A stretch of 56,302 bases of DNA from Gammaproteobacteria bacterium. Lineage in GTDB: Bacteria > Pseudomonadota > Gammaproteobacteria > SZUA-229. The position numbers and the translations under genes are program-made. Positions 1 to 23,219 of this stretch are shown one piece after another; the stretch's first letter is position 1; the number at the start of each line of letters is the position of its first letter. The stretch is taken from positions 1 to 56,302 of the forward strand of contig JAUVDT010000003.1 of NCBI GenBank assembly GCA_030595185.1, written 5' to 3'. The notes under the pieces are model-generated. The model had not been told where the DNA came from and did no database searches. It was given only the letters and a program-made list of their open reading frames with translations.

Positions 1-12
1 CCTAGACATAAA

Positions 13-2661
13 TTACTCTGATAATAACTGCTTTAACTCTGGCACACATGAGCCACAATTAGTTCCCGCTTTTAATAACTCACCTATTTCTTCTGCTGTT
101 GTTAATTTATTTTCTACTATGCACTGCTTAATCGTATTAATGCCCACACCAAAACATGCGCAAATAACTCGTCCAGAATCGGCTTTAGGGTCTGTAGGCT
201 TACCGGTTAATAAACTAATACGATCAGCCTCTTCTAACTGATCATTATCAAATAATTTTGCTAACCAGTCACGTTCAGGCAAATTCAAATCGGGGCCGAT
301 AAAAATACAACTTTCTAAATGATCATTTTCAATGCGCGCCGCGCGGTAACGCAAACTTGCCTGATCAAAATATTCTACCCAATTCACATCATCTGATTTT
401 GTGCATAATAAGTCTCTTGCACAGGCCGCCCAATCCTCAGCAGATTCATCACCTGCCAATTCATAGCGCCACATACCATGACCTTTAGAGCTGGACCAAT
501 AGGTTGCATTTTTTATATCAAGCTTTCGGCGCGATAATAAAAAACCAAACCACTTAGCATTATAGGTTTTTATTTTTACAGGAGTATATTTAAACTCCGG
601 CTGACCAGAAACAGGATCACAATTATTACCTACTAATGATCCTACACCCGCTTTACTGGCAAACTGATGACTCCAGTGTATCGGTACAAACACATTTCCT
701 TTTTGTTGTGAATCACTTACTACTGCCCTGACAATTACCTCTGCCTTGTCACTGCTCACTGTAACCAGACTATTATTCTCAACTTTAAATTGATGCGCAT
801 CGTCAGGGTGAAGTTCAACGTAAGGCTCTATTATATGAGCCGATAGAATAGCGGACTTACCGGTTCTCGTCATTGTGTGCCATTGATCTCGAATACGCCC
901 TGTATTCAAAACTAATGGATAATTCTCATTCACATTTGAGGCTGGTGTCTTTGCTTTTACTGTAATAAATTGTGCTTTTTTTGATGGCGTAAAAAACAAA
1001 CCATCAACAAACATTCGCTCTGTGCCTTCAGGCGATTTTCTATTAACGGGCCACTGCACAGGTTCTAAATCATCATACCCTCGATAACTAACATCACTGA
1101 ACAAACTGATATCAAAATCACGTCGCCCATTATTCTTATGACCTGACAGTGCAGCATGCTCTATAAAAATATCCCGAGGTTCTTCATAATTAAATTTTTC
1201 AGCAAAACCCATACGCTTTGCAACTTCAGAGATAATCCACCAATCTGGTTTTGCATCCCCTGGTATCGGTAAAAAGGAACGCTGTCGAGTAATTCTGCGT
1301 TCCGAATTTGTAACAGTACCATCACGTTCTCCCCATGTTTGCCCGGGTAATAAAACATCGGCATATTTTGTGGTATCGGTTTCTCTCACACAATCTGATA
1401 CCACTACAAACTCACATTTTTCTAATGCTTCTCGTACAAATTCAGTATCAGGTAAACTAACAGCCGGATTCGTTGCCATAATCCAAAGTACTTTTATTTT
1501 TCCTTCATGCACAGCTTTAAATAAATCAACTGCTTTCAGACCTTCTTGTTTAGCAATATAGGGAGACTGCCAAAAAGTTTGCACTAAATTCTGATGATCT
1601 TTATTTTCCAGTGCCATGTGCGCTGCCAGTTGATTTGACAAGCCACCAACTTCTCTACCACCCATAGCATTAGGCTGGCCAGTAAATGAAAAAGGTCCCA
1701 TGCCAGGACGGCCAATTCGCCCTGTTATTAAATGGCAATTGATAATAGAGTTAACACGATCAGTTCCATTCGACCATTGATTAATACCTTGAGAATAAAC
1801 GGTAACAACACGCTCTGTGCGTGCAAACAATCTAAAAAAGTTTTCTATGCTTTCTTTTGATAAACCACAAAAGCTGGCTACTTTCTCAATATCACCCGCA
1901 CTTTCTTTCGCTTCTGCAATTGCTGCGTCAAAGCCTTCAGTATTATTGCTTATGAACTTATTATTTTTTTCAGTTGATCCATCTAAATAAGTTAATAAAC
2001 CATTAAATAGTACATGATCTGTTCCCGCTTTTATTGCTAAATGCACATCGGCAATATCCACACTAGCAGTTTTTCGAGGATCAACAACTACAATCGTTAA
2101 ATCAGGGTTATTACGCTTTGCTTTTTTAATGCGTTGAAATAAAACAGGATGGCACCACGCGGTATTGGAACCCGTTAGAATAATTAATTTTGCGCACTCA
2201 AGGTCTTCATAAGAACAAGGAACCGTATCAGAACCGAATGCTCTTTTATAACCGGCAACCGCTGATGACATGCAAAGCCGGGAGTTAGTATCGATATTAC
2301 CGCTACCAATAAATCCTTTCATTAATTTATTAGCGACGTAGTAATCTTCTGTTAATAATTGTCCGGAAACATAAAAAGCAACAGAACCAGGTCCATGATT
2401 ACGAACAGCTGAGGATAATTTATCAGCAACCAGATTTAAGGCATTAAGCCAGTTCTCTGTCTCCCCATCCACTTCAGGATATAACAAGCGGCCGTCATAA
2501 CCCACTGTATCTGCAAGCGCGGCTCCTTTCGAACAAAGATTACCGAAATTAGCCGGATGATCTGGATCACCGGTTACAACAATCTTGCCCTCTTCACTTA
2601 GCGATGCAATGACACCACAACCGACACCACAATAAGGACAAGTTGTTTTTACTTTATTCAT
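13..2661 (-). CDS. nasA: Assimilatory nitrate reductase catalytic subunit (Mo-bisPGD) with C-terminal BFD-like [2Fe-2S] domain
   Basis: N-terminal CPYCGVGC...C 4Fe-4S motif, NIDTNSRLCMSSA active-site loop, GQPNAMGGRE, QWHTMTRTG, C-terminal VICACFGVG...CGSC; no Tat signal; last gene of the nirBD operon. Confidence 0.93.
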   Translation of the reverse strand: MNKVKTTCPYCGVGCGVIASLSEEGKIVVTGDPDHPANFGNLCSKGAALADTVGYDGRLLYPEVDGETENWLNALNLVADKLSSAVRNHGPGSVAFYVSGQLLTEDYYVANKLMKGFIGSGNIDTNSRLCMSSAVAGYKRAFGSDTVPCSYEDLECAKLIILTGSNTAWCHPVLFQRIKKAKRNNPDLTIVVVDPRKTASVDIADVHLAIKAGTDHVLFNGLLTYLDGSTEKNNKFISNNTEGFDAAIAEAKESAGDIEKVASFCGLSKESIENFFRLFARTERVVTVYSQGINQWSNGTDRVNSIINCHLITGRIGRPGMGPFSFTGQPNAMGGREVGGLSNQLAAHMALENKDHQNLVQTFWQSPYIAKQEGLKAVDLFKAVHEGKIKVLWIMATNPAVSLPDTEFVREALEKCEFVVVSDCVRETDTTKYADVLLPGQTWGERDGTVTNSERRITRQRSFLPIPGDAKPDWWIISEVAKRMGFAEKFNYEEPRDIFIEHAALSGHKNNGRRDFDISLFSDVSYRGYDDLEPVQWPVNRKSPEGTERMFVDGLFFTPSKKAQFITVKAKTPASNVNENYPLVLNTGRIRDQWHTMTRTGKSAILSAHIIEPYVELHPDDAHQFKVENNSLVTVSSDKAEVIVRAVVSDSQQKGNVFVPIHWSHQFASKAGVGSLVGNNCDPVSGQPEFKYTPVKIKTYNAKWFGFLLSRRKLDIKNATYWSSSKGHGMWRYELAGDESAEDWAACARDLLCTKSDDVNWVEYFDQASLRYRAARIENDHLESCIFIGPDLNLPERDWLAKLFDNDQLEEADRISLLTGKPTDPKADSGRVICACFGVGINTIKQCIVENKLTTAEEIGELLKAGTNCGSCVPELKQLLSE

Positions 2662-2761
2662 TCGATATCCCGATACAACTAGACATAAGGTATAAGTAAT
2701 TTAGACCCTTCGATTTATTATATATTGCTTACTGAACTTTTGTGATAGCAAATCACTATAA

Positions 2762-3112
2762 TTATGAATCAAATAATAACTCACGAATAAAACCTTTATT
2801 TAATACATGGTTTTTAACGACTCGTTGGTATTCTTTAAAAGCACTTTTAAGGTAAATTCTAAGCCAAAAGAGCACACCCGGTATAAAAAATGCGGTGTAC
2901 CAAATATATTCAGCCGACACTGGAGATAATATAAGGAGAAGAAATAAAAGATAGAAAGGCCAAACCAGAATCAAACCGCAGCTAATGTATTTAATGATCA
3001 GTACGATCATCGCGACAAGACGATTGAATCGTTGTTTGCGCGAATGATAAACAGACCAAAATACAGCCTTTTCTAATTCACTGGCGTCTTCTCTAAGGGA
3101 TTTAGAAACCAT
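2762..3112 (-). CDS. Small hypothetical membrane protein (about 2 TM)
   Basis: 116-aa ORF with hydrophobic stretches, co-oriented between the DsrC-like gene and nasA. Confidence 0.6.
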   Translation of the reverse strand: MVSKSLREDASELEKAVFWSVYHSRKQRFNRLVAMIVLIIKYISCGLILVWPFYLLFLLLILSPVSAEYIWYTAFFIPGVLFWLRIYLKSAFKEYQRVVKNHVLNKGFIRELLFDS

Positions 3113-3137
3113 AAAACGACAAACAGACAGTGATGCT

Positions 3138-3494
3138 TTAGTGTTCGCCTTTGGTTCTCATCAAACCTGCCAGACGATTACCTTGCTTTTGTGGCCCACC
3201 ATATGGAAATATTTTATGTAGGTAAGTACTATTTCCACGCTCTTCACCCCATGCTGTTTTAAAGTATTTTACAATTTTACGAACTTCTGCTTGAGCGCTA
3301 TGCTGCTCATAAAATTTTCGTAAAAAATAAACCACATCCCAAACCTCATCTGTTAAATCAAGTTGTTCAGATTTTGCCTGTGCACGAACAAAGTCCTCAC
3401 TCCATTCATCCATGTTAACGATATAACCTTCACTACAGGTCAAAACAACTATTCCGTTAACATCCAACTCTTTTGTCTGCATATTTGCGTACAT
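3138..3494 (-). CDS. DsrC/TusE/DsvC-fold protein lacking the C-terminal catalytic cysteines
   Basis: EGYIVNMDEWSE, LTDEVWDVVYFLRKFY and YLHKIFPYGGPQKQGNRLAGL match the DsrC/TusE pattern, but the protein ends RTKGEH with no Cys in the tail. Confidence 0.88.
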   Translation of the reverse strand: MYANMQTKELDVNGIVVLTCSEGYIVNMDEWSEDFVRAQAKSEQLDLTDEVWDVVYFLRKFYEQHSAQAEVRKIVKYFKTAWGEERGNSTYLHKIFPYGGPQKQGNRLAGLMRTKGEH

Positions 3495-3527
3495 AATAAA
3501 ACCTTTTAAAAATATTTAATTTCATTT

Positions 3528-3560
3528 CGTCATTCCGGAAATCTTTTAGCTGGAATGACG
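3528..3560. repeat. Collapsed GTCATTCC...GGAATGAC palindromic (REP-like) element
   Basis: cgtcattccgg-aaatcttttag-ctggaatgacg; same termini as the longer copy at 49828-49916. Confidence 0.65.
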
Positions 3561-3568
3561 GATACCTA

Positions 3569-5428
3569 TTAATGTATATCTGGTAAAACACCAACTTGTG
3601 GCATATCTGCTAAACCAGTTTCTCTTGCATGTTCCTGGAAACCTTTATTACGCCAGAAAAAGGCTCCCGGCATTGTTGTTGGTATAACCAATACATAAAA
3701 TAATGCACGACCAATGTAAGCTGCACTTACTATTGTTAAAATAGCAATCACCCATAACATAAGAGCAACAGCACCTTCCGCTTGCAACAACATTAACAAG
3801 GTAACTATCACTATGCCTGCGAATAACAATGCATTTCGTAATAGATATGTTTTTCCAAATGTCGTTATTTGTTCGTAATAAGAAGCAGCGCCTTCTCCGC
3901 CATTCTTTTTCAAATCTGAACGATGACGAACTAAACCAAAGCCTTCGATAACTAAACCCGCAAGCAGCGGTAAAGCCACATAATTTATCAATGGTAATAT
4001 CGACTGTCCTTCAAACACAGCAACTGAACCAAAAGCAATCAACACAATAACAGCACCCAAACTGAACATGGAGCCATAAAATGATGAAAGTACTTGCCAG
4101 TGGTTCCAAAAGGGACGTGCTTTAATACGATAAATACTGTGCATAAAATACAAAGCAACAGGACCCGCAACTACAGCACCCCAGCCCATAATTGTTTGTA
4201 ACGACTGCAACCAACCTGTTGGTAGCCATGTAAACAAACCACTAAATACTGTTAACACGGTGTACGCTGCAAACAAATTAAAGAACACGGCGATACTTGC
4301 CACTTCACGACTGACCGGTGAATACTTTAAATTATTAAAGGCGCGATAAAAACGATGTGGTTTGCCCAGGTGCATTGTTGATAAAGCCAATGCAAAAGTT
4401 TCCAAACCTAATAGTGCAAACAGTGTAATAGGAAATGCTATTGGATAGTACTCAATACTTAATTCTGTGAAACCTAACATTGGCCCAAAAGTAGAAGACA
4501 GAAACATCATTAAAAACGCACCAATCACACCCTGACTGATTAAAGTAAAAACAACTAAAGGATCTTCTCGCGAACGTAACTTAGCCAGGTTCCATTCTTT
4601 TGATTTACCCGTTTCATGAACTTTAGTATGGAATGAATTCTCGCCCAGACGACCTTGTTCATCCTGTTCATAACGTAACGGCATACTGTCAGTACGTGTC
4701 ATTTCACGAGGCAATGTTTTTGTTTGTTCAAAACGAATATTTGGGTTTGTAATATCAGGTGATGGAAAACCGGGGATACTTGTTTCTAGCTGATCACGAT
4801 TTTCTGGCGTGGTTTCAATCACACCAAAATCTAATGCACTACCCAGACAAGCGGCAACACACGCTGGCTTCAACCCTACCTCTAAACGATCAACGCACAT
4901 ATTACATTTATGCACATGGCCTTTTGTCATATCTAATTGAGGCGCATTGTATGGACACACCCATGTGCAATAACCACAACCAAAACAAATATCAGGGTCT
5001 TGTAATACCGCACCGTATTCAGCAAACTTTGTATAAGCACGCGTTGGACAGCCTTTCAAACAAACTGGATCATCACAATGGTTACAGGCCATCGAAATAT
5101 TAAGACGTGTGTAATTTGGATACGTACCACCTTCAACATAACCAACCGCACGGTAAGCTAAATGCGGTGGTAAATCATTCTTTTCACTACACGCAGATTC
5201 ACAGGCATGACATGAAATACAGTTATCCGCATTAAAATAAAAACCGTGCTGCTTATAACGATTTGGATTTTCACCTATCGAACTATCGCCATTAATATTT
5301 AAACTTTTACCAGCAAGGTCTTCACATTCTTTAATTAAATCGATCGATTTTCCATATTGATTTAATTCAGGTGAATCCACGTTGGGAATAAACGCATAGT
5401 CTGGTTCTTTTTCACGTACTTTAAACAT
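3569..5428 (-). CDS. Fused DmsB-like 4x[4Fe-4S] subunit + DmsC/NrfD-type membrane anchor
   Basis: Four Cys groups (CISCHACESAC; CNHCDDPVCLKGCP; CFGCGYCTWVCP; CNMC...CVAAC), then PLVVFTL, STMHLGKPHRFYRAFNNLKYSPVSRE and about 8 TM helices ending in IGRALFY. Confidence 0.88.
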   Translation of the reverse strand: MFKVREKEPDYAFIPNVDSPELNQYGKSIDLIKECEDLAGKSLNINGDSSIGENPNRYKQHGFYFNADNCISCHACESACSEKNDLPPHLAYRAVGYVEGGTYPNYTRLNISMACNHCDDPVCLKGCPTRAYTKFAEYGAVLQDPDICFGCGYCTWVCPYNAPQLDMTKGHVHKCNMCVDRLEVGLKPACVAACLGSALDFGVIETTPENRDQLETSIPGFPSPDITNPNIRFEQTKTLPREMTRTDSMPLRYEQDEQGRLGENSFHTKVHETGKSKEWNLAKLRSREDPLVVFTLISQGVIGAFLMMFLSSTFGPMLGFTELSIEYYPIAFPITLFALLGLETFALALSTMHLGKPHRFYRAFNNLKYSPVSREVASIAVFFNLFAAYTVLTVFSGLFTWLPTGWLQSLQTIMGWGAVVAGPVALYFMHSIYRIKARPFWNHWQVLSSFYGSMFSLGAVIVLIAFGSVAVFEGQSILPLINYVALPLLAGLVIEGFGLVRHRSDLKKNGGEGAASYYEQITTFGKTYLLRNALLFAGIVIVTLLMLLQAEGAVALMLWVIAILTIVSAAYIGRALFYVLVIPTTMPGAFFWRNKGFQEHARETGLADMPQVGVLPDIH

Positions 5429-5439
5429 TTGTTTCTCTT

Positions 5440-5590
5440 TTTTACCGCTAATAAACGCGAATGAACGCGATTAAAAGCATAAATCAATTCAACATCTATT
5501 TTTGACGCAAAACCCGCAGAGGCGCAAAGAAAATAATTTTTAAAACTACTTTATTAAATTTGCATTTATTTGCGTTTATTTGCGGTAAAA
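5440..5590. repeat. Inverted pair of 10-mer tandem repeats, with a partial 9-mer-type repeat inside
   Basis: ttttaccgctaataaacgcgaatgaacgcga (from 5440) pairs imperfectly with ttgcatttatttgcgtttatttgcggtaaaa (to 5590); gacgcaaaacccgcagaggcgcaaaga at about 5504-5530. Confidence 0.7.
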
Positions 5591-5596
5591 ACATTT

Positions 5597-7771
5597 TTAA
5601 TAAGCTCGCGCCGCTTTATTACGTACTGCCGCAGCACCCTGATTTACTATCGGTTCAATTTTCACAGCGCATTGTTTAAATGCTGGCTGTCTTGAATGCG
5701 GGTCTAATAAACCCAAAGCCAAACGATTCACACATTCATGAAAATGAAATGGTACGAAAACCATATTGGGTGAAACACGTTGCGTGGTTTGTACCATGAC
5801 AACCGCATCACCACGACGCGTAGTTAGTCGTGCATAACTACCATGTTCCACGCCTAACTTTTTCGCCGCATCTGGATTCATTTCCATATATGGCGTTGGA
5901 CTAAATTTATTTAAGTTACCCACTTTACCGGTACGGGTACGCGTATGAAAATGTTCAACAACGCGACCACTGTTTAACCAGAACGGGTAATCATCACAAG
6001 GACGTTCGTTGTCATCAACAAACGGTAAAGGAATTAATTTTGCTTTTTGGTCAGCGTGCTGGAATTCACCATCGGTGTACAACCGTGGAGAGCCTTCTTC
6101 CGCATCTTCAGAAAACGGCCATTGTATACCGCGCTTCTCTTCAATTTTATCGTAAGTCAAACCCGAGTAATCTAACATTCGACCTTTTGAAAGCTCGCGC
6201 ATTTCATTAAATGCACCTTCTGTGTTTTCTGGGAACGTTACACTGTGATCAAAACGTTTTGCCATTTCATTGAAAATCCAAAAATCAGGCTTTGATTCTC
6301 TAAATGGTTCCACAACATTTCGAGTTAAGTTAACGCGACGCTCTGTATTGGTGAAACAACCTTCTTTCTCTGCCCAAACTGCAGCAGGGAAATACACATG
6401 ACTGTATTCATTAGTTTCAACATCTTCATACGCATCTTGCACGACTAAAAAGTCCAACTTCTCCATGATCTTTCTCATGCGCGCTGTATTAGTCATTGAT
6501 GTCATTGGATTAGTCGCAATAATCCACAAGCCTTTTATTTGTCCTGTTTCTATTGCAGGAAAAATATCAGTCATAAACAGACCACGCTCTTTTGGAAAAA
6601 ACTCTTCGTCTACATTCCAAAATTCTGCAATTTCTTTTCGATGTTCTGCATTCTCAAGGGCACGATAACCTGGCAAACCGGAACACGAGGACCACTCTCT
6701 TGTTCCCATTGCATTGCACTGACCAGTAATCGACAAACTCGTCCCTCCGGGTTTGCCGATATTTCCAGTGATCAGATTCAGGTTATTGATACCTACCACG
6801 CCATCCGAACCATGCATGCTCTGGTTAATACCCATAGTCCAAATTGTCATTGCAGCACCGGCTTTGGCATAAGTGCGCGCAACGTGTCGAATCATGTCGG
6901 CATCAATGCCACAGATTCTTGATGCTGATTCCGGATCGTACTCCGCAACCAACTTTTCAAAACTTTCTATATCAGAAGTATGCGCTTCCATATAAGCACG
7001 ATCTTCAAGACCTTCTTTTATAATGACATGCGCCAGTGAATTTAATAAAACAACATCAGTACCCGGTGTCACTGGCAAATGAATATCCGCCATTTGTGCC
7101 AGCATCGTAACGCGAGGATCAACCACGATTAACGGAAACTTTTTCTTTTCCATCGCTGCTTTTAAACGGTAATAAATTACAGGGTGTTGTTCAGGTAAAT
7201 TAGATCCGATTGCTAACAAACAATCAGTGTGCTCAAAATCGTCATAACAACCCGGCGGGCCATCCGATCCAAATGAGCGCTTGTAACCAGATGCAGCAGA
7301 TGACATGCACAATGTCGTATTACCATCGTAATTATTTGTGCCAATTACACCACGCGCCAACTTACCTAAAGTATAAAACTCTTCGGTCATAATTTGACCT
7401 GTTGACACAATCGCAAATGAATCACGACCATACTTTTCTTGAATGCGCTTTATTTCGCTGGCTGTTTTATCTAATGCCTCATCCCAGCTCGCTTCTTTAA
7501 ATTCGTCGAAACGTTTTTTGCGCATGAGTGGCACACGACCACGACCTGCTGATTTAAATAATTCGTGTTCAAAAATACCTTTCAGACATAACTTACCGCG
7601 ATTCACATCCGCATCAGCTACGCCTCGCGATGTAACTGCATCTCCTTTTTTATCCAGACCGACTTCAATCGAGCAACCAGTAGAGCAATAACCACAAGTT
7701 GTGTATTTCCATTCCACCACGCCTTTGTCGGCGATTTTAATTGGATTTTTTTTGTTACGTCCGAAAAGCAT
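5597..7771 (-). CDS. Nas/NarB-related Mo-bisPGD oxidoreductase catalytic subunit (divergent subfamily, no Tat signal)
   Basis: CGYCSTGC...LCLKG, NYDGNTTLCMSSA, SITGQCNAMGTRE, EGCFTNTERR, HFHTRTRTG, DPHSRQPAFK; no C-terminal BFD domain. Confidence 0.88.
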   Translation of the reverse strand: MLFGRNKKNPIKIADKGVVEWKYTTCGYCSTGCSIEVGLDKKGDAVTSRGVADADVNRGKLCLKGIFEHELFKSAGRGRVPLMRKKRFDEFKEASWDEALDKTASEIKRIQEKYGRDSFAIVSTGQIMTEEFYTLGKLARGVIGTNNYDGNTTLCMSSAASGYKRSFGSDGPPGCYDDFEHTDCLLAIGSNLPEQHPVIYYRLKAAMEKKKFPLIVVDPRVTMLAQMADIHLPVTPGTDVVLLNSLAHVIIKEGLEDRAYMEAHTSDIESFEKLVAEYDPESASRICGIDADMIRHVARTYAKAGAAMTIWTMGINQSMHGSDGVVGINNLNLITGNIGKPGGTSLSITGQCNAMGTREWSSCSGLPGYRALENAEHRKEIAEFWNVDEEFFPKERGLFMTDIFPAIETGQIKGLWIIATNPMTSMTNTARMRKIMEKLDFLVVQDAYEDVETNEYSHVYFPAAVWAEKEGCFTNTERRVNLTRNVVEPFRESKPDFWIFNEMAKRFDHSVTFPENTEGAFNEMRELSKGRMLDYSGLTYDKIEEKRGIQWPFSEDAEEGSPRLYTDGEFQHADQKAKLIPLPFVDDNERPCDDYPFWLNSGRVVEHFHTRTRTGKVGNLNKFSPTPYMEMNPDAAKKLGVEHGSYARLTTRRGDAVVMVQTTQRVSPNMVFVPFHFHECVNRLALGLLDPHSRQPAFKQCAVKIEPIVNQGAAAVRNKAARAY

Positions 7772-7844
7772 ACTCTATTCGTCTCTTAAATTTTTTGATC
7801 CCGGCAATACTATGCCGACTTTAAGCTTATGGCCTTTGTTCTTT

Positions 7845-7958
7845 AAGTCGTAAGTCTTGAGTCTTGAGTCTTGAGTCTTGAGTCCAAAATCTAAAGTCAG
7901 AAGCCTTAAATATTTTGTCTTTTAACTTACGACTTTGAACTTACGACTTCTGACTTTT
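7845..7958. repeat. Inverted arrays of heptamer tandem repeats (RAGTCNN)n ... (RACTTNN)n
   Basis: aagtcgt aagtctt gagtctt gagtctt gagtctt gagtcca (7845-7886) and aacttac gactttg aacttac gacttct gactttt (7924-7958). Confidence 0.8.
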
Positions 7959-8294
7959 TTATTCGTTCGGACAACCTTCATTTGCAGTCAGCGAGAGCAT
8001 AATCGTTTCACCTTCCATTTTTACCGGATAAGTTGCAGCACAACCTTCATCAGGTGCCACTGCTGTTCCTGACTCTAATTCAATTTTCCAATCGTGCATT
8101 GGGCAAGCGACTTTATTCCCCATCACCAGACCTTGTGACAACTGCCCACCTTTATGCGGGCATTTATCTGCAACAGCAAAAATTTTATCTTCTGCTGTTC
8201 TGAAAACGGCAATATTGCCTGCCGCCACTTCAACAACACGGGCACCCAGCTTTGGTATGTCGTTCAATGTTCCTACTTCTATCCAATCACTCAT
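7959..8294 (-). CDS. nirD: Nitrite reductase (NADH) small subunit, Rieske-type
   Basis: IAVFRT, CPHKGGQLSQG, VACPMHDW; directly downstream of nirB. Confidence 0.93.
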   Translation of the reverse strand: MSDWIEVGTLNDIPKLGARVVEVAAGNIAVFRTAEDKIFAVADKCPHKGGQLSQGLVMGNKVACPMHDWKIELESGTAVAPDEGCAATYPVKMEGETIMLSLTANEGCPNE

Positions 8295-8321
8295 AACTAA
8301 ACCTCTTTAAATTTAAAATCC

Positions 8322-8404
8322 ACCGCTGAGATGCGGAGGCGCAGAGATTTTTTAATTATATCTTTTTAGTTCTGGAAACCTCCGCGTCTCTGCGCCTCTG
8401 CGGT
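8322..8404. repeat. Inverted pair of 9-mer tandem repeats (cgcagag-type)
   Basis: accgctgagatgcggaggcgcagag (8322-8346) pairs with ctccgcgtctctgcgcctctgcggt (8380-8404). Confidence 0.75.
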
Positions 8405-8423
8405 AGGTCTTTATTTAATATTT

Positions 8424-10859
8424 TTAACCAATCACTTTCATTGGAGTGAACTCATGAGACTCACCACCTTGTGCGCGTTCTGCCCATGGATCATCCTGCA
8501 TGAATGTCTGGCCGTATCTGAATCGATCTGCTAGTTCTTTACGTTTTTCAGCATCTTCAACAATTGCTTCTTTAACGTAGTTCAAACCAACACGTTCAAT
8601 CCACGGTGCCGTACGTTCAAGATAATAGGCATCTTCGCGATATAGTTGCATGTAAGCTGCGCTGTATTCCAGTACGTCCTCTTCCGTTTCAACATTGCAA
8701 AGGAAGTCAGTTGCACGAACTTTGATGCCGCCATTACCACCAACGTGTAATTCGTAACCTGAATCGACACATACAACGCCGTAATCTTTAATCGTTGCTT
8801 CGGCACAGTTACGAGGGCAACCAGAAGCCGCCATCTTAAATTTATGCGGCATCCATGAGCCCCAGCTTAATTGCTCAAGCTTGATACCAATACCAGTTGA
8901 ATCTTGCGTACCAAAACGACACCAATCACGACCCACACAAGTTTTAACCGTACGTAATGCTTTACCGTATGCGTGACCAGAAACCATGCCGGCATCATTA
9001 AAGTCTTTCCAAATTGCTGGTAAGTCTTCTTTCTTCACGCCGTATAAACCAATACGCTGACCACCTGTTACGTGAACCGTATCGAGGTTATATTTTTCAG
9101 CCGCATCTGCAACTGCGCGTAATTCTTTAGGCGTAGTCATGCCACCCCACATACGCGGAATAACTGAGTAAGTACCGTCGCCTTGAATATTTGCGTGAGC
9201 ACGTTCGTTGATTAAACGTGATTGGTTATCATCAACGCCTGCATCTGGGTGCTTGCAAACTAAGTAATAGTTAAGAGCTGGACGACATTTACTGCAACCA
9301 TCTTCCGTCTTCCACGCCATTGAATCCATTACTTCACGAACAGATTTTAATTCGCCAGTATTGATTGCGGCTCTAACATCAGTGTGTGATTTATCGGTAC
9401 AACCACACATTGGTTTCAAATGTGGAGCCGTTGAGTGATCGCCACCCAAAACGTGAGACATCAATGACTCAACTAAGCCAGTACATGAACCACAAGAGCT
9501 AGATGCTTTTGTGTGTGCACGAACTTCGTCTAAGGTGAATAATTTTTTATCGTTAATCGCAATAACAATGTCACCTTTAGTAACACCATTACAACCACAA
9601 ATTTCAGCAGAGTCTGCCATTGATGCAACGCGATTATCATCACCGTGACCTGAATCACCAAGATGCGCCTGACCAAATAATAAGTTTTCGCGGAACTCAG
9701 AAATATCGGTACCGTCACGCATTAGATCGAAGTACCAACTACCATCAATCGTATCGCCGTACATAACCGCGCCTTCAATCTTGTTATTTTTAACAACAAT
9801 CTTGCGGTATACGCCACGCGCTTTATCCTGAAAAACTAATTCGTCAGTTGTTTCGTCACCCGTGAAATCACCAGCAGAAAACAAATCGATACCCGTTACT
9901 TTTAACTTAGTCGATGTCATTGTGCCTTCGTAACGGCCAATGCCCATTTTCGCTAAATGATTCGCACAGACTTTTGCCATATCAAATAATGGCGCCACTA
10001 AACCATAAACTTCACCACGATGCTGCACACACTCACCAACAGAATAAATACTTGGATCGTAAGTTTGCAAAGTATCGTTAACAACAATACCGCGTTCGCA
10101 ATGAATGCCTGATTCTTTAGCCAATTTAATATTTGGTTTGATACCAACCGCCATAACAACTAGGTCAGCATAAATTTCTGAACCGTCTTTAAAACGAACT
10201 TTTTCGACTCTATCTTTACCGATAATCGATTCAGTTGAAGCTTCCATTAAGAAGTGCAAACCACGCTCTTCTAAAGACTCTTTCAACATTGCTGCTGCAG
10301 GAGCGTCCATTTGACGTTCCATTAATTTATCCATCAAGTGAACAACGGTAACGCTCATACCCTGTTCCATTAAACCGTTAGCTGCTTCAAGACCTAACAA
10401 ACCACCACCAATAACAACGGCGTGTTTATGTTTGCCAGCCGCGGCAATCATCGTATCGACATCTTTAATATCACGGAAAGCAATAACGCCTTCAAGATCA
10501 TTACCAGGAACAGGAATAATGAATGCATCAGAACCTGTCGCAACTAATAAGCGATCATAAGATTCTTCAGTGCCGTCATCGGCAATAACTTTTTTATTAA
10601 CGCGATCAATCGAAGTAACTTCTTTACCACTGTGTAACGTCACATCGTTATCTTTATACCACTGCATATCATTAATCATGATTTCTTCAATGGTCTTATC
10701 ACCCGCTAAAACAGGCGACAACATAATGCGGTTATAGTTACCGTAAGGCTCAGCACCGAAAACGGTAATGTCATACATATCCGCATCAATCTTCAATAAC
10801 TCTTCAACGGTACGCATACCCGCCATACCATTACCGATAACAACTAGTTTTTCTTTCAT
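8424..10859 (-). CDS. nirB: Nitrite reductase (NADH) large subunit
   Basis: VVIGNGMAG FAD motif, YNRIMLS, GGGLLGLE, two BFD-like Cys groups, TCVGRDWCRFG and SGCPRNCAE siroheme/4Fe-4S ligands. Confidence 0.96.
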   Translation of the reverse strand: MKEKLVVIGNGMAGMRTVEELLKIDADMYDITVFGAEPYGNYNRIMLSPVLAGDKTIEEIMINDMQWYKDNDVTLHSGKEVTSIDRVNKKVIADDGTEESYDRLLVATGSDAFIIPVPGNDLEGVIAFRDIKDVDTMIAAAGKHKHAVVIGGGLLGLEAANGLMEQGMSVTVVHLMDKLMERQMDAPAAAMLKESLEERGLHFLMEASTESIIGKDRVEKVRFKDGSEIYADLVVMAVGIKPNIKLAKESGIHCERGIVVNDTLQTYDPSIYSVGECVQHRGEVYGLVAPLFDMAKVCANHLAKMGIGRYEGTMTSTKLKVTGIDLFSAGDFTGDETTDELVFQDKARGVYRKIVVKNNKIEGAVMYGDTIDGSWYFDLMRDGTDISEFRENLLFGQAHLGDSGHGDDNRVASMADSAEICGCNGVTKGDIVIAINDKKLFTLDEVRAHTKASSSCGSCTGLVESLMSHVLGGDHSTAPHLKPMCGCTDKSHTDVRAAINTGELKSVREVMDSMAWKTEDGCSKCRPALNYYLVCKHPDAGVDDNQSRLINERAHANIQGDGTYSVIPRMWGGMTTPKELRAVADAAEKYNLDTVHVTGGQRIGLYGVKKEDLPAIWKDFNDAGMVSGHAYGKALRTVKTCVGRDWCRFGTQDSTGIGIKLEQLSWGSWMPHKFKMAASGCPRNCAEATIKDYGVVCVDSGYELHVGGNGGIKVRATDFLCNVETEEDVLEYSAAYMQLYREDAYYLERTAPWIERVGLNYVKEAIVEDAEKRKELADRFRYGQTFMQDDPWAERAQGGESHEFTPMKVIG

Positions 10860-10908
10860 TCTCGTACTCCAAGTAACAAGCAGCTTTTATTCATATTACT
10901 GATGGAAT

Positions 10909-10924
10909 AGCAACAACCGTGCCA
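10909..10924 (-). promoter_or_regulatory. sigma54 (-24/-12) promoter of the nirB operon
   Basis: Minus strand reads TGGCAC-GGTTG-TTGCT, an exact consensus match, about 50 nt upstream of nirB. Confidence 0.85.
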
Positions 10925-11007
10925 CCATATTAGAGTTAACTAAATAATGCCTTAGATGATTGTTTTTGTTGATAATAATTTTATATACAGGAGCAAAGGA
11001 ATGACAC

Positions 11008-11037
11008 TGCACCACAATGACGCACCAGATTAGTGCG
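11008..11037. promoter_or_regulatory. Tandem NtrC-like enhancer sites
   Basis: tgcaccacaatgacgca (11008-11024) and cgcaccagattagtgcg (11021-11037) resemble TGCACCA-N3-TGGTGCA, about 85-115 bp upstream of the sigma54 site. Confidence 0.7.
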
Positions 11038-11267
11038 CTAAGCACAGTTATTGATCAATATAATTGTGGCTCCATATGAATAGGTATTTCATACCAAATT
11101 ATATAAATGTCACAGATGTATTAAATGTACTTCTGCAATTTGATTTAAAACAAATTCCATTAGTACTTTCGCAAACAAATGACATAAAACTTCTATATTA
11201 GCTTATATGGATATACACAAATATCAGGATTTTTCACAAAAGACATTCCATAACTTAAGAGAAGTAC

Positions 11268-13160
11268 ATGTTAAATTTAAAAGATATCGATATTAGCAAG
11301 AAACTAATGGCTGGCTTTGGCCTTATTGTTTTACTCATCATTATCACTGTTACCATGACTTACAATGGCATCAAAAATACTGGTGACGTTAACGCACGTG
11401 TTATCAATTTACGAATGCCAACCGTACTGGCCTCAACCGAAATGACAAACGGCATCAATCATTCTCTGGCCGCTTTGCGTGGCTGGATGATTTTAGGCAA
11501 AGATAAGTTTAAAAACGATCGCCAGGAAGCATGGAAAGAAATTGATGATGCTTTTAACAAAATGAATCATTTTTCAAAGAATTGGACTAATCCAAAGAAC
11601 ATCACTCGACTCAATGAAATTAAAGAAAGCTTAATTCGCTTTAAAAAAGCACAACAAGAGATTGAAGACATTAGCGGCTCGATAGAAAATACACCTGCTA
11701 CAAAAATATTAATTCAACAAGCAGCACCTCAAGCCAAAATAATCATCACTCAAATTACGAGAATGATCGATATTGAAGCTAAATTATCCGCTACAGCTGA
11801 GCGTAAAGCCTTACTCGGTATGATGGCAGATGTTCGAGGCAGCATGGGTTTATCGTTGGCTAATATTCGTGCCTTTTTATTAACAGGTGATCAAAAGTTT
11901 AACAAAGAGTTTAGTCGCTTTTGGGCAATAAATGATCGTCGTTTTGGCGACTTATATCAGCAACAAAAGCTTTTGAATGCCGATCAGGCAATTGCGCTTA
12001 ATAAATTTAAAGCAGCTCGTGATATTTTTAAAGACCTGCCTCCTCAAATGCTGGACATTCGCGGATCAAAACAATGGAACTTAGCTAATTATTGGTTAGG
12101 CACAAAAGCGGCTCCTGAAGCCCGTATTATTTTAACTGACTTAAATGAAATGGTTGCCAATCAGAACAAGCTAGCGGCGACTGATATCACTGTTGCTAAT
12201 GATGCCTCCGATAACTTAATTGCCTTTACTATCTTACTGGGAATTATCTCTACTATTTTAGCAATTGCCATTACCGTTTACATAGTACGTATGATTTCAA
12301 AACCTCTGCAAGAGATTATCGAAATATCTTTGCCTTTATCTGAGGGTGATTTAACACAACGATTTATTGATTCGGGTGATAATGAAATTGGAAGAATGTC
12401 AGTTTCTTTAAACCATTTTATCGACAAATTAACAACCGTTTTAATTGATGTACAGGAAGCCGTTAGCAACACGTCCGTATCATCCGACCAGGTAAGTAAA
12501 ACAGCGCAAATGTTAAGTCAAAGCGGTGTAGAACAAGCAGCGAGTATTGAAGAAACATCAGCATCGGTTACTCAAATGTCAGCCTCTATTGACCTTAATA
12601 ATGAAAATGCGAGATCAACAAGTGAAATAGCATCATCGACATCAACAGATGCCGAAGAAGGTGGAGAAGCGGTTTCAAAAACAGTGCTCGCAATGAAAGA
12701 TATTGCTTCTAAGATTACATTAATTGAAGACATTGCTTACAAAACTAATCTCCTTGCCTTAAACGCAGCAATCGAAGCGGCGCGTGCAGGTGCTCACGGC
12801 AAAGGCTTTGCTGTGGTTGCAGATGAAGTAAGAAAACTGGCTGAGCGCAGTCAGATTTCAGCTCAGGAGATTAGTGAGCTAGCCAGCGGCAGTGTAAAAG
12901 TAGCTGAAAATGCTGGACACTTATTAGAAAAGATTGTGCCTAATATTAAAAATACATCTGATTTAATCAATGAAATATCATCGGCAACTGAAGAGCAATC
13001 AACAGGCGTTTCACAAATTAATACGGCCATTATTGAGCTAGATAACGTGTCCCAACAAAATGCGGCCGCAGCAGAAGAACTGGCAGCCACCGCAGAAGAA
13101 TTATCCGCTCAAGCATCTTTAATGGAGCAAAATATTGCTTTCTTTAAATTGACAAAATAG
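11268..13160 (+). CDS. Methyl-accepting chemotaxis protein (TM - helical periplasmic sensor - TM - HAMP - MA domain)
   Basis: IAYKTNLLALNAAIEAARAGAHGKGFAVVADEVRKLAERS signature; two TM helices. Confidence 0.95.
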   Translation: MLNLKDIDISKKLMAGFGLIVLLIIITVTMTYNGIKNTGDVNARVINLRMPTVLASTEMTNGINHSLAALRGWMILGKDKFKNDRQEAWKEIDDAFNKMNHFSKNWTNPKNITRLNEIKESLIRFKKAQQEIEDISGSIENTPATKILIQQAAPQAKIIITQITRMIDIEAKLSATAERKALLGMMADVRGSMGLSLANIRAFLLTGDQKFNKEFSRFWAINDRRFGDLYQQQKLLNADQAIALNKFKAARDIFKDLPPQMLDIRGSKQWNLANYWLGTKAAPEARIILTDLNEMVANQNKLAATDITVANDASDNLIAFTILLGIISTILAIAITVYIVRMISKPLQEIIEISLPLSEGDLTQRFIDSGDNEIGRMSVSLNHFIDKLTTVLIDVQEAVSNTSVSSDQVSKTAQMLSQSGVEQAASIEETSASVTQMSASIDLNNENARSTSEIASSTSTDAEEGGEAVSKTVLAMKDIASKITLIEDIAYKTNLLALNAAIEAARAGAHGKGFAVVADEVRKLAERSQISAQEISELASGSVKVAENAGHLLEKIVPNIKNTSDLINEISSATEEQSTGVSQINTAIIELDNVSQQNAAAAEELAATAEELSAQASLMEQNIAFFKLTK

Positions 13161-13181
13161 ACAACATTTAACTAAGCATTG

Positions 13182-13214
13182 AACTCTCTCTTGCCACACA
13201 GTCAGGAGAGAGTT
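13182..13214. terminator. Hairpin after the MCP gene (possible terminator)
   Basis: aactctctc...gagagagtt stem; no clear U-tract. Confidence 0.35.
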
Positions 13215-13329
13215 GCATACCTTACTTATAGCGAAAAACGACTATTCTCTATATTAGATAATTATTCCAAAATTAAGCGTCTATAATTACCCTTAATACC
13301 TCGTTAAAAGGACTTTAGCAAATACCAAT

Positions 13330-14871
13330 ATGAAGCCATTTAAGTCACTATACCCATTAGTTACCCTCGTATGGTTATTTTTAATGCTTATGCTATCCGG
13401 CATAGTTATCAATTCTAATATCAATATAGCAAAAGATGACTTTAACGATAAAACAATCAATCTATTCAACACCGTTAGTGACCAGGTTAAAATAAATGAA
13501 ACCATCGTAGAAGGTTTTGCAGCAACTATTAGTGCAGCCGGCAACCGGAACTGGAAACAAATTCGTGAATATGCAAAACAAATGCTGACACGTTATCCAC
13601 ATATTTTTAATTTTGAAATAACTGAAAAAATAAGACACAAAGATAAAACACGCTTTGAACACCATTTACAAACATCAGTATTTAAAGAATTTAAAATCAG
13701 GCAGTTTACTTACGAAACGAACCGTCAATGGAAAGAGGCAGCAACAAAAGAATTTTACATGCCTATTACTTTTATGGAACCTTTTAGGGCAGGTTCAGAA
13801 AAAATATTAGGCTTAGACGTCAGCTCCAGTTCTTTTTTAATGACTTCGCTAAAAAAAGCAATGACAACTCACGCATCCATTTCAACGATGCCTTTTACTT
13901 TGGTTGAAGGCGACTTAGCATATTTAATTTACAAACCCATTGTGAAATACGGCATTGAAACCACCTCGCATGACCACAGTTACCAGCTAGAGAACAGCTA
14001 TGCAATTTTGGTTATTTTAGCTAAGTCTTTGTTTAAAGAAGCATTAACAAGTAGCCCGGAATACCAAATAAACCTTTTCCATAGCGATTTTTCTGCCGGT
14101 GAAAATAAAGGTACATTATTTAAATCGACGGACACTCAATCAACCTCATTAGAATCACTATTGTTTCCTAAGCTTATTTTTTATCGAAAAATCGACAATA
14201 ACTCCCAGCCATTTATATTAAGCATTGAACACCAGCTAGGCTGGGATGCACTAAACTTATGGTTATTAATCATCATATGGAGCGCAGGATTTATTTCTTT
14301 CTTCGTCATGCTGCATTACGCAAAAGCCCACCATCAACTCAGCCTTCAACGTTTAAAAGAAACCGAAAACCTATTTTATTTAGCCAATCACGATGAATTA
14401 ACTGGCCTGGCAAATCGCAACTTTTTGCTAGATCGTTTAAAACATGCATTGATACAAGCCAAAAGATCCAATACACAACTCGGCATACTCTTTATGGATC
14501 TCAATAATTTCAAACCAATAAATGACAACTATGGTCATGCTGCTGGCGACCAGTTATTACGTGACACGTCAAACCGCATATTGTCCTGTATTCGAACTGG
14601 TGATACGTTATCTCGTCGCAGTGGCGATGAATTTATTCTTATTCTTGAAAACATTCAGGATCAAGCAAGTGTCAAACTTGTTGTTGATAAAATTAAGTTT
14701 GCCTTTGACAAGCCCTTTTCAATAGATAGAAAACAACTCAATATTGGCATCAGTATAGGGACTTCAATTTTCCCAATTGACGCCCAAACAGAAGAGGACC
14801 TTCTAAGTGCAGCGGATAAGAATATGTATTTAGATAAACAATCCAGTAAAAGCCCTTCTAAAAAGGCATGA
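13330..14871 (+). CDS. CHASE-domain sensor diguanylate cyclase (SGDEF variant)
   Basis: YMPITFMEP...ILGLD CHASE-like segment between TMs; HDELTGLANR, DLNNFKPINDNYGH, RRSGDEF. Confidence 0.88.
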   Translation: MKPFKSLYPLVTLVWLFLMLMLSGIVINSNINIAKDDFNDKTINLFNTVSDQVKINETIVEGFAATISAAGNRNWKQIREYAKQMLTRYPHIFNFEITEKIRHKDKTRFEHHLQTSVFKEFKIRQFTYETNRQWKEAATKEFYMPITFMEPFRAGSEKILGLDVSSSSFLMTSLKKAMTTHASISTMPFTLVEGDLAYLIYKPIVKYGIETTSHDHSYQLENSYAILVILAKSLFKEALTSSPEYQINLFHSDFSAGENKGTLFKSTDTQSTSLESLLFPKLIFYRKIDNNSQPFILSIEHQLGWDALNLWLLIIIWSAGFISFFVMLHYAKAHHQLSLQRLKETENLFYLANHDELTGLANRNFLLDRLKHALIQAKRSNTQLGILFMDLNNFKPINDNYGHAAGDQLLRDTSNRILSCIRTGDTLSRRSGDEFILILENIQDQASVKLVVDKIKFAFDKPFSIDRKQLNIGISIGTSIFPIDAQTEEDLLSAADKNMYLDKQSSKSPSKKA

Positions 14872-15022
14872 CATAATCTGACACAGATAACAATATGAGC
14901 CCGATGTATATTAACAAAACCTAATGCACATGTTTTTACATTTATATCACATTATTTTTGTTGCAAAAGGGTCTTTTTACAACTAAATAATATGTGATAG
15001 TTAATTAAGGTACATTTAAAGT

Positions 15023-21941: not shown

Positions 21942-23219
21942 CTATACTTCTAAATCTTTATCTTCAGCTCTAACGACTCTATTCCGGCCTTGCGCCTTAG
22001 CTAAATACAAACCAACATCAGAACGTTTAATTAATTCTTTAAGCATTTCATCATCATGCATTTCTGCAATACCGAAACTGCATGTAATAGTCCCTACAAT
22101 ATCAAACTCAGACTTTTCAATTTCCTTTCGTAAATTTTCAGCTAATATAGCAGCGCCATTAATATCAGTATCGGGACAAACAACAATAAACTCTTCCCCG
22201 CCCCAACGACCCACTATATCTATTTTCCTAACATGATTCGATAGAATCTTAGACAATGTGACTAAAGTACTATCACCAACATCATGCCCGTAAGTATCAT
22301 TTACATTCTTGAACTTATCGATATCCAGTAAAACAACACTAAAGCTAGTCCTATAACGCAGACGCCGTAAGTATTCTGTCTCCATGCTTTCTTCAATTTT
22401 AATTCTATTAAATAAGCCAGTAAGGTGATCTGTTATTGCCATGCTTTCTAAACGACTATTAACCTCTGCCATTTTTTGTTTTGCATCTTCAAGTTCTTTT
22501 GTTCGTTCCGCCACTCTTACTTCGAGCAAACCTTTATCTGACTCAATTCTGTCAATATAATCGTTTATCTTATTTCCCATGTGATTAAACGCCCGACTCA
22601 GTGTCGCAATTTCATCAGAACCTGAAATTTCTACATACGAATACTCTCCAGACTCTTTAAACTTACTGATAACTTTCGTTAAGCTGCCTAACTTATGAGT
22701 TAGTAAAAAACCAAACATAAGACCACTGATAGCTATAACAATCATTCCTGCCATAGCAATACCTATTCCTAATTGTCTCGCCTTCTGTAACTGCTTGGTA
22801 ATTCGCTCAAGTGAAAATTCTATTTCTAAAAACCCAAACTTTGAGATTCGTTTCGTCACCCAGTAATGATGAGGCGAAGAAAACTTTTCATGCATTTTTT
22901 CTCCCACCTTATCAAACTGACTGTGCGCAATAATAACGCCACTCCTATTAAGAATGGCGATATTAAATATTTCAGGATCTTGCGCTATTTGTTCAATGTA
23001 TTGTTGCAAATCATCGTACTCTTCTGAAAACATTGAGTTACTTGATATTTGCTGTATTAATTCAATAACTATTTTATGTCTATTATCAAGATCCTCTTTT
23101 GCCTGATTTTCAACGAAATTAAATGTATTCCACAAGACAACCGTTAGCATGATAGCTTCCATTACAAAAACGGAAATAGCAATACGATACTTTAAAGAAG
23201 ATAGTGCTGTTCTAACCAT
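21942..23219 (-). CDS. HAMP-GGDEF diguanylate cyclase
   Basis: Two TMs, DEIATLSRAFNHM HAMP, TDHLTGLFNR, RKIDIVGRWGGEEF (RxxD I-site present). Confidence 0.92.
   Translation of the reverse strand: MVRTALSSLKYRIAISVFVMEAIMLTVVLWNTFNFVENQAKEDLDNRHKIVIELIQQISSNSMFSEEYDDLQQYIEQIAQDPEIFNIAILNRSGVIIAHSQFDKVGEKMHEKFSSPHHYWVTKRISKFGFLEIEFSLERITKQLQKARQLGIGIAMAGMIVIAISGLMFGFLLTHKLGSLTKVISKFKESGEYSYVEISGSDEIATLSRAFNHMGNKINDYIDRIESDKGLLEVRVAERTKELEDAKQKMAEVNSRLESMAITDHLTGLFNRIKIEESMETEYLRRLRYRTSFSVVLLDIDKFKNVNDTYGHDVGDSTLVTLSKILSNHVRKIDIVGRWGGEEFIVVCPDTDINGAAILAENLRKEIEKSEFDIVGTITCSFGIAEMHDDEMLKELIKRSDVGLYLAKAQGRNRVVRAEDKDLEV

Follow-up and report, generated by a model that had tools for sequence, protein, structure and literature searches.

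A conserved molybdoenzyme–membrane anchor pair beside nirBD as a candidate quinol-dependent assimilatory nitrate reductase

Textbook assimilatory nitrate reductases are soluble enzymes fed by NAD(P)H, ferredoxin, or flavodoxin; NasA, for instance, receives its electrons through a BFD-like domain. NarGHI, the membrane-bound quinol:nitrate oxidoreductase, bears a di-heme b anchor, NarI, which builds a redox loop. A survey of 2021 distinguishes fourteen types of NrfD-type complexes, of which SoeABC is described as the only example on the cytoplasmic side (N-side) with an inverted anchor, and its main text does not contain the term "nitrate reductase" (PMC8076601). Here, we analyze a stretch of 56,302 nucleotides (nt)—the whole of which we call the window—on contig JAUVDT010000003.1 of a gammaproteobacterial assembly (GCA_030595185.1; genome G000, 69% complete). 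Between nirD and nasA, it encodes a molybdenum bis(pyranopterin guanine dinucleotide) (Mo-bisPGD) catalytic subunit, here MoA, and a protein in which a DmsB-like iron–sulfur domain is fused to a DmsC-like membrane anchor. Judged by comparison of sequences, MoA and this fusion probably form a quinol-dependent, cytoplasm-facing assimilatory nitrate reductase.

In the proposed mechanism, the anchor would oxidize quinol at a DmsC-type site located at the cytoplasmic end of helix 2 (S350, H353). The electrons would then travel through the four [4Fe–4S] clusters of the DmsB domain and the FS0 cluster to the Mo-bisPGD of MoA, where nitrate would be reduced to nitrite in the cytoplasm; NirBD, encoded just upstream, would finally convert nitrite to ammonium for assimilation. 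Because the anchor lacks heme, and the quinol site and nitrate reduction would be found on one side of the membrane, the step would be electroneutral and conserve no energy—the gain would be the use of the quinone pool in place of NAD(P)H or ferredoxin. Lithotrophs that oxidize sulfur, iron, or methane make their NADH via reverse electron flow, and a donor from the quinone pool would suit them. In G000, the pair would work beside a canonical NasA and under a sigma-54-type promoter. What we infer here is the substrate of the pair, the source and direction of its electrons, and the way it is regulated.

Every gene from nirB through nasA lies on the minus strand among the open reading frames (ORFs) of the 56-kb window, with lengths in amino acids (aa):

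8424-10859, minus strand: nirB, large subunit of NAD(P)H nitrite reductase, 811 aa (938 bits with TIGR02374, cut-off 578)
7959-8294, minus strand: nirD, small subunit of nitrite reductase, 111 aa (94 bits with TIGR02378, cut-off 75)
5597-7771, minus strand: MoA, Mo-bisPGD catalytic subunit, 724 aa (Molybdop_Fe4S4, Molybdopterin, and Molydop_binding domains)
3569-5428, minus strand: DmsB::DmsC fusion, iron–sulfur and anchor protein, 619 aa (Fer4_11, E 6e-22; 72.4 bits with PF04976, cut-off 22.3)
3138-3494, minus strand: DsrC-like protein, 118 aa (PF04358, 99 bits)
2762-3112, minus strand: TM116, membrane ORF, 116 aa (no Pfam or NCBIfam match)
13-2661, minus strand: nasA, complete, 882 aa, with a C-terminal BFD-like [2Fe–2S] domain (PF04324, from Pfam)

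The initial annotation of this DNA had recognized a complete nasA and, between nirD and nasA, three co-oriented genes for a second Mo-bisPGD catalytic subunit without a twin-arginine translocation (Tat) signal, a 4x[4Fe–4S]/DmsC-type anchor fusion, and a Cys-less DsrC/TusE-fold protein. These genes are as it described them: MoA has the expected Pfam domains and no twin arginine at its N terminus, four cysteine clusters and the PF04976 domain share the 619 aa of the fusion, the DsrC-like protein ends in ...RTKGEH, and nasA is complete together with its BFD-like domain. Between nirD and nasA, there are really four genes, the ORF of TM116 having been overlooked. The NasA of the window sits in the NasA clade of the tree described below and is, hence, of the canonical soluble assimilatory type.

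Gene content, conservation, and synteny of the MoA–anchor pair were observed directly. Across 401 genomes sampled evenly from the class, 57 carry MoA and 57 the anchor, both occur in 56 and either one in 58; wherever both are on one contig, the two genes are adjacent. MoA and anchor are, by this sequence record, a conserved pair. The order nirB–nirD–MoA–anchor is colinear in 31 of the 36 loci that have at least 7.5 kb of upstream flank, and NirB is present in 54 of the 57 genomes with MoA. A scan with one genome per species gave at least 557 confirmed loci, and the 80 listed belong to Gamma- and Betaproteobacteria. Where named, the lineages among the matches listed mostly oxidize sulfur, iron, or methane—Chromatiales, Thioalkalispiraceae, Thiohalobacter, Acidiferrobacterales, Gallionellaceae, Thiobacillaceae, and Methylocaldum are found among them. 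The initial annotation had treated MoA, anchor, and DsrC-like protein as one unit and had proposed a survey of gene neighborhoods for this trio together with nirBD. MoA and anchor do belong together (56/58) and stand in line with nirBD (31/36); the DsrC-like gene is not part of this pair: it follows the anchor in 18 of 65 loci and also occurs without MoA.

The electron module of this pair resembles that of DMSO reductase. Within the fusion, four [4Fe–4S] motifs (residues ~60-205) are followed by a linker and an eight-helix anchor (~289-575); E. coli DmsB is 41.6% identical to residues 59-240, and full-length E. coli DmsC is 25.7% identical to residues 290-590. All 16 cysteines (C70 to C194) are invariant in 40 fusion sequences, and the match to TIGR02951, at 160 bits, falls short of the equivalog threshold (214), which makes the domain DmsB-like rather than a DmsB equivalog. 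On the anchor, H353 aligns with His65 of E. coli DmsC in a common S..HLGxP motif and is invariant in 90 sequences. Replacement of this DmsC histidine blocks quinol oxidation, as stated in the survey cited above (PMC8076601). An AlphaFold2 model of the fusion shows the eight helices, mostly at a predicted local distance difference test (pLDDT) score >90.

The distribution of positive charges gives the topology signal. As means over the 90 sequences, the loops on the side of the Fe–S domain bear 4.98 (loops 2-3), 2.26 (4-5), and 4.63 (6-7) lysines plus arginines, and those on the opposite side 0.27 (1-2), 0.11 (3-4), 0.08 (5-6), and 0.01 (7-8)—a bias of about 25-fold toward the Fe–S side. The open frame of 633 aa leaves, against the 619 aa of the protein, no space for a signal peptide. 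Charge bias and absent signal peptide together point to a cytoplasmic location of the Fe–S domain, the quinol site, and hence MoA. An orientation inverted relative to DmsC, with the Fe–S side facing the cytoplasm, is thus supported at the level of predicted topology. Since no histidine is conserved within the transmembrane helices of the 90 sequences, neither a transmembrane heme wire nor an electrogenic step is expected.

One might argue that the anchor only tethers or wires MoA, the donor being soluble—ferredoxin, or the NADH-oxidizing flavin domain of NirB—or that the complex runs in reverse and reduces quinone. Canonical Nas partners are indeed linked to NAD(P)H, ferredoxin, or flavodoxin, and nirB shares the operon in the 31 of 36 loci mentioned above. 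However, the invariant quinol-site histidine and the S..HLGxP motif are hard to reconcile with a passive tether, and MoA lacks the BFD-like domain of NasA (no PF04324 match, which the NasA of the window has). Redox potentials, moreover, make a nitrite oxidation that reduces quinone thermodynamically unfavorable. We therefore regard a role of the anchor other than quinol oxidation as quite improbable.

Relatives of the fusion are numerous: the protein collection holds >3,500 of them, and those with a name are called "DMSO reductase anchor" or "iron-sulfur subunit". At E ≤ 1e-30, 550 representatives with 30-50% identity make up a broader group of DmsB::DmsC fusions. Twelve distant fusions of 532-644 aa (P0130-P0135, P0139, P0143, P0172, P0178, P0189, and P0196) keep HLG(K/R)P as well as PARP(F/Y)WN, and no Tat motif is found in these twelve. 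Other enzymes may thus be served by the inward-facing fused module, too.

For the catalytic subunit, a cytoplasmic location agrees with its N terminus: the open frame begins one codon ahead of the ATG (725 versus 724 aa), and in 37 related MoA loci there is no RRxFL motif before the first cysteine. The best match among solved structures is Desulfovibrio desulfuricans NapA (2NAP/2JIO; 454 bits). The active-site residues can be read directly from the alignment. C26, C29, C33, and C62 of the FS0 [4Fe–4S] cluster (PF04879 match) are invariant in all 38 full-length orthologues, and so are C155–M156, M313, R358, and D170, which correspond to C140–M141, M308, R354, and D155 of D. desulfuricans NapA and whose roles we take to be those given in the NapA literature. 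The Mo-ligand motif is hereby Cys–Met, unlike the (Se)Cys–His of formate dehydrogenases, and GYKRSFGSD of MoA matches the local motif GYKRAFGSD in the NasA of the window.

A quick IQ-TREE phylogeny of 46 rows against NasA, NapA, and formate dehydrogenases (Fdh)—a check that the initial annotation had suggested—gives MoA a clade of its own inside the nitrate-reductase group. MoA forms a single clade with support 100 and a long stem of 0.69 changes per column, and a split of support 100 sets the group that includes it apart from the seven Fdh rows. It is placed neither in the NasA clade of 17 rows (support 100), where nasA of Ralstonia and nitrate reductases of Pantoea and Paracoccus are found, nor with the pair of E. 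coli and Paracoccus NapA. Its sister, weakly supported (92), is a Tat-bearing, 826-aa NapA-like group of relatives together with a nitrate reductase from a Rhodococcus plasmid. Formate dehydrogenase was considered as an identity for MoA and rejected on account of the Cys–Met motif and the position among nitrate reductases.

Among the NapA-like proteins of relatives, the open frames at three loci (L112, L113, and L114 in genomes G008, G022, and G011) span 826-859 aa, and RRSFLKW appears only after an N-terminal extension of ~30 residues. The plasmid collection contains no MoA orthologue; the best match, 40% identical, is a 1171-aa fused "nitrate reductase" on a Hymenobacter volaticus plasmid (L102:3974-7489). 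Its gene order—nirD and a major facilitator superfamily (MFS) transporter, then the fused enzyme, then a 496-aa "rubredoxin" and cobA—is another noncanonical assimilatory layout.

The long stem and separate clade could also be read as a sign of another substrate, be it a different oxyanion or a nitrogen compound from which MoA would yield nitrite or ammonium for NirBD. That no equivalog cut-off is passed by MoA and that the genome already has NasA would agree with such a role. The invariance of the Nap/Nas active-site residues argues against it, as do the nitrate transporters flanking the operon and six relatives in which MoA is the only recognizable nitrate reductase beside nirBD. A substrate other than nitrate thus appears hardly likely to us.

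These six relatives (G002, G004, G016, G021, G024, and G033), where MoA is the sole match of Nas/Nap/Fdh type at E ≤ 1e-100 and narG was likewise not found, are the strongest argument that MoA would supply nitrite to NirBD. Within the genus of the window, two genomes have NasA only, in the order nirB–nirD–DsrC-like–nasA (G001 and G003), one has only the MoA–anchor pair (G002), and G000 has both. Among 155 NirB-carrying genomes, MoA and NasA co-occur in 17, MoA alone is found in 37, NasA alone in 81, and neither in 20 (odds ratio 0.11); if two genomes flagged as unpublished (G285, with NasA alone, and G063, with neither) are excluded, NasA alone is found in 80 and neither in 19. As 17 of the 57 genomes with MoA carry NasA too, the two enzymes would not be simply redundant.

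Around the operon, the recurrent flanks are genes for NarK-like MFS transporters (23 loci), NrtA/B/C, a CobA-type methylase, MobB (10/65), and a PP2C/Ser-Thr kinase (21 loci); by its composition, this is a nitrate-assimilation gene set. The initial annotation had read the system as a nitrogen-regulated, quinol-coupled cytoplasmic reductase that could be an assimilatory nitrate reductase or could release nitrite or nitrogen from another substrate for NirBD. Part of this reading has gained support, all of it comparative: synteny, active site, topology, the quinol-site histidine, and the alternation with NasA.

The same cytoplasmic quinol:nitrate chemistry might instead be dissimilatory and act as an electron sink that re-oxidizes the quinone pool under oxygen limitation—with NirBD completing a nitrate ammonification, or with assimilation and redox balancing combined. 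An Fe–S subunit together with a quinol anchor is the architecture of a respiratory complex iron–sulfur molybdoenzyme, and the retention of NasA in the 17 of 57 genomes suggests nonidentical roles. The window, in addition, was obtained from the metagenome of a cold seep, an oxygen-poor setting, and narG was not found in any of the 25 searched genomes of its family (G000 included; completeness 57-100%), which may call for another nitrate-respiring enzyme. On the contrary, a heme-less anchor with an N-side quinol site would allow for neither a redox loop nor energy conservation. The flanks (NrtABC, NarK, CobA) and the sigma-54 promoter are assimilatory, MoA tends to replace NasA among the NirB-carrying genomes, and some relatives bear a separate, Tat-bearing NapA-like enzyme for dissimilation. 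A dissimilatory function of the pair is, on this balance, rather unlikely.

Several points weigh against the assimilatory, quinol-dependent function that we favor. Quinol-linked membrane molybdoenzymes are typically respiratory, and NirBD is also able to serve dissimilatory or detoxifying nitrite reduction. Across all 401 genomes, MoA and NasA show no negative association (odds ratio 1.15); it arises only after conditioning on NirB, and the kinship among the counted genomes overstates its significance. NasA persists beside MoA in more than the window's own genome, as the 17 genomes show. On the side of the catalytic subunit, MoA stays below every NCBIfam equivalog cut-off (Fdh-alpha, 598 against 666; NasC, 531 against 1100), and its separate clade comes from a tree that left out cyanobacterial NarB, Bacillus subtilis NasC, and monomeric NapA. 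For the fusion, the AlphaFold2 model of the Fe–S domain has a pLDDT <50 and is unreliable, and Foldseek against the PDB yields weak NrfD-like matches for the anchor (E 8e-3 to 0.2), with cytochrome bd subunits interleaved with ActC/ActF of alternative complex III. Finally, the intergenic gaps, at 129-187 nt, are wide enough for promoters within the operon.

The regulation of the operon would be governed by elements ahead of nirB, which are given here together with a further promoter-like site and two genes outside the operon:

10909-10924, minus strand: sigma-54-type -24/-12 element TGGCACGGTTGTTGCT, ~50 nt upstream of the nirB start
11022-11036, no strand assigned: NtrC-like inverted repeat GCACCAGATTAGTGC, ~100 nt farther upstream than the sigma-54 element
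2717-2746, minus strand: sigma-70-like site, 10 of 12 positions, ~55 nt upstream of nasA
18513-19979, plus strand: NarK-family nitrate/nitrite MFS transporter, 488 aa (TIGR00886, 296 bits, just below the cut-off of 311.7)
24349-26067, plus strand: PP2C phosphatase and Ser/Thr kinase fusion, 572 aa (assigned by domain composition)

The sigma-54 promoter before nirB had already been recognized by the initial annotation, and the element TGGCACGGTTGTTGCT is indeed the single match of its type in the 56-kb window, at an expectation of 0.08 and with at least one match in 8 of 100 shuffles. The palindrome GCACCAGATTAGTGC (GCAC-N7-GTGC, which we take to be the NtrC consensus) is likewise a single match in the window; since 25 of 100 shuffles contain at least one, it is weak alone. 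No terminator-like site lies on the minus strand in the intergenic gaps of the operon, and a scan of positions 1-12000 of the window against Rfam gave no match at E ≤ 0.1. Besides a possible transcription with the operon, nasA may have its own from the sigma-70-like site.

The genes for NarK and the kinase fusion are in the same window as the operon, narK being unlinked. This NarK belongs to the same ORF cluster as the transporter that flanks 23 related loci; the 572-aa kinase ORF is likened to the flanking kinase of 21 related loci, which has 571 aa, by domain composition and length only. Signaling genes crowd the flanks of the operon (11268-17359 and 21942-23219) and encode a methyl-accepting chemotaxis protein, a CHASE–GGDEF cyclase, a GGDEF–EAL protein, and a second GGDEF protein. 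Positions 2700-10900 of the window are present in four DNA runs, all from one cold-seep study, and no RNA run is listed for them.

The DsrC-like protein is an element of its own. Against Allochromatium vinosum DsrC (1YX3), it aligns with an E value of 2.8e-22, and the two functional cysteines are replaced—Asn stands in the place of CysB and Glu in that of CysA—in all 26 sequences of this type 1, which ends in ...GEH and is that of the window. In the same 26 sequences, the C-terminal arm GGPQKQGNR(L/F)AG....GEH is invariant except for one L/F change, which argues for a functional arm. A test for TusE gave 81 bits with NF008562 against a cut-off of 191, and the C terminus ...KGEH is without the persulfide-accepting cysteine. 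The loss of these two cysteines excludes a sulfur relay as well as trisulfide chemistry for this protein.

In the 65 loci with enough downstream flank, the anchor is followed by a DsrC-like gene of one of two types in the 18 cases mentioned above. Type 2 ends in ...QQACKIAGMRKPLKLMLDL, keeps CysB and has lost CysA, and it follows the anchor in 9-10 loci of other lineages; three examples are:

L027:11435-11737, DsrC-like gene of type 2
L028:11889-12197, DsrC-like gene of type 2
L044:12413-12742, DsrC-like gene of type 2

With a second family in this position, Cys-poor genes of the DsrC fold would have been recruited to the operon at least twice. Type 1 also lies between nirD and nasA in G001 and G003—of the same genus and without MoA or anchor—and after nirD in G005. 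A dedicated subunit or chaperone of the molybdoenzyme was tried as an explanation of the DsrC-like protein and rejected, as the protein is present without MoA and follows the anchor in just 18 of 65 loci. Its distribution makes it a separate, optional accessory of nitrate/nitrite assimilation operons, which is not specific to MoA. A complex prediction of NirB with the DsrC-like protein scored 0.01 and carries no weight for or against binding.

A long form of type 1 with 213-219 aa is found in two genomes, at L134:7054-7695 on the minus strand (G015) and at L135:6294-6953 on the plus strand (G002). Its N-terminal domain of ~105 aa matches no known family and is 67% identical between the two copies. 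In G015 (99% complete), where NirB, NasA, and MoA were not found, it adjoins an HPP-family membrane protein and a CBS protein; in G002, it adjoins a LysR regulator, a solute-binding protein, and a permease resembling molybdate uptake genes. DsrC-family matches in general number 3-10 per genome in the family of the window (G000-G024) and four in G000, and these counts fit a Dsr-based sulfur-oxidizing lifestyle.

TM116 comes after the anchor gene in 28 of 65 loci, and no copy of it was found at the nirBD–DsrC-like–nasA loci of G001 and G003; in the protein atlas, nothing scored >0.87 against it. It appears to travel with the MoA–anchor pair as a frequent companion.

If the proposed function of the pair is correct, a large share of the sulfur-, iron-, and methane-oxidizing Proteobacteria—lithotrophs that are prominent at seeps, vents, and in groundwater—would draw on the quinone pool to begin the assimilation of nitrate. 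Nitrate assimilation would then be uncoupled from the NAD(P)H/ferredoxin pool in lithoautotrophs, and the energy costs reckoned for their growth on nitrate would have to be revised. Metagenomic matches to "nasA/narB" would need re-reading, with the anchor gene now labeled as DMSO reductase, and complexes with NrfD/DmsC-type anchors would gain a second N-side member after SoeABC. The partner of the nitrate reductase, its location, and its presumed donor are what would be new here. The recurrence of Cys-less DsrC-like genes in nirBD operons poses a separate puzzle, as this fold has so far been tied to sulfur trafficking.

A broader proposal, which we consider slightly less likely than not, might be derived from this: MoA and the fusion would constitute a fourth prokaryotic class of nitrate reductase beside Nas, Nap, and Nar—heme-less, quinol-dependent, anchored at the inner face of the membrane, assimilatory, and present in about one of seven sampled genomes (57/401)—and Cys-less DsrC-fold proteins of two independent types would be new accessories of the siroheme- and Mo-dependent assimilation of nitrate and nitrite.

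In the literature searched, no characterized clade of the same architecture was met, and no description of the MoA–anchor pair was found in open-access full texts; an earlier account, for example in supplements, is possible. Genome papers list simply "nasA" or "narB" with nirBD (PMC4914600, PMC2607301). Nitrate-induced NrfD-type molybdenum complexes of unknown function, reported from a Firmicute, are a different system (PMC10949509).

Compared with the soluble NasA/NasC/NarB enzymes, MoA is likewise a cytoplasmic Mo-bisPGD protein with an N-terminal [4Fe–4S] motif and a Cys ligand; with NasA, it also has in common the context of nirBD, nitrate transporters, and cobA, as well as the motif GYKR(S/A)FGSD, as seen in the NasA of the window. 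However, the two are 36-37% identical and form separate clades, MoA is without the C-terminal BFD-like [2Fe–2S] domain, and its partner is a membrane-bound DmsB::DmsC fusion instead of a soluble NAD(P)H reductase, ferredoxin, or flavodoxin. D. desulfuricans NapA has its Cys140, Met141, Met308, Arg354, and Asp155 preserved in MoA, whereas Glu156 is replaced by Gly and the twin-arginine signal is missing. No operon ORF matched the napB, napD, or napC families in general scans, a dedicated search not having been made.

E. coli DmsABC and YnfFGH bear a homologous electron module—eight helices, no heme, and the His65 that is kept in the fusion. Here, in contrast, the B and C subunits are fused in one chain, the Fe–S side is predicted to face the cytoplasm in an inverted orientation, and the catalytic subunit derives from the Nap/Nas branch rather than from that of DmsA. 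SoeABC has its peripheral subunits on the N-side as well, but consists of three separate subunits and delivers the electrons of sulfite to quinone, whereas the MoA–anchor pair would take them from quinol to an oxyanion. The genome of the window may encode such a complex elsewhere: on contig C14 of G000 (L126), a 966-aa molybdoprotein (2635-5535, minus strand) is accompanied by a 241-aa four-cluster Fe–S protein (1909-2634, minus strand) and a 339-aa ORF (471-1490, minus strand). The molybdoenzyme of L126 looks signal-less and is nearest to PhsA/DmsA models, the 339-aa ORF has no NCBIfam match, and the sizes of the three match those of the sulfite dehydrogenase SoeABC. The MoA–anchor locus is distinct from this cluster.

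NarGHI would be similar to the MoA–anchor pair in being a membrane-bound quinol:nitrate oxidoreductase with a cytoplasmic active site. At the level of subfamilies, NarG and MoA are nevertheless unrelated (TIGR01580, only E 1.7e-10), and the helices of the fusion are without the conserved histidines that would be expected of a NarI-like anchor. For the accessory protein, the fold family and the C-terminal arm are common to DsrC, TusE, and RspA, whereas the functional cysteines are lost and its context is nitrate/nitrite assimilation instead of dsr or tus genes; "RspA" denotes Cys-less members of the DsrC family. The family name itself appears in one paper (PMC8477390). Hence, as far as these comparisons reach, none of NasA/NarB, NapA, DmsBC, SoeABC, and NarGHI combines all of these features, and the nearest system differs by aspect: NasA/NarB are closest in chemistry and context, while the active site is nearest to that of NapA, the electron module to DmsBC, the orientation to SoeABC, and the reaction with its sidedness to NarGHI.

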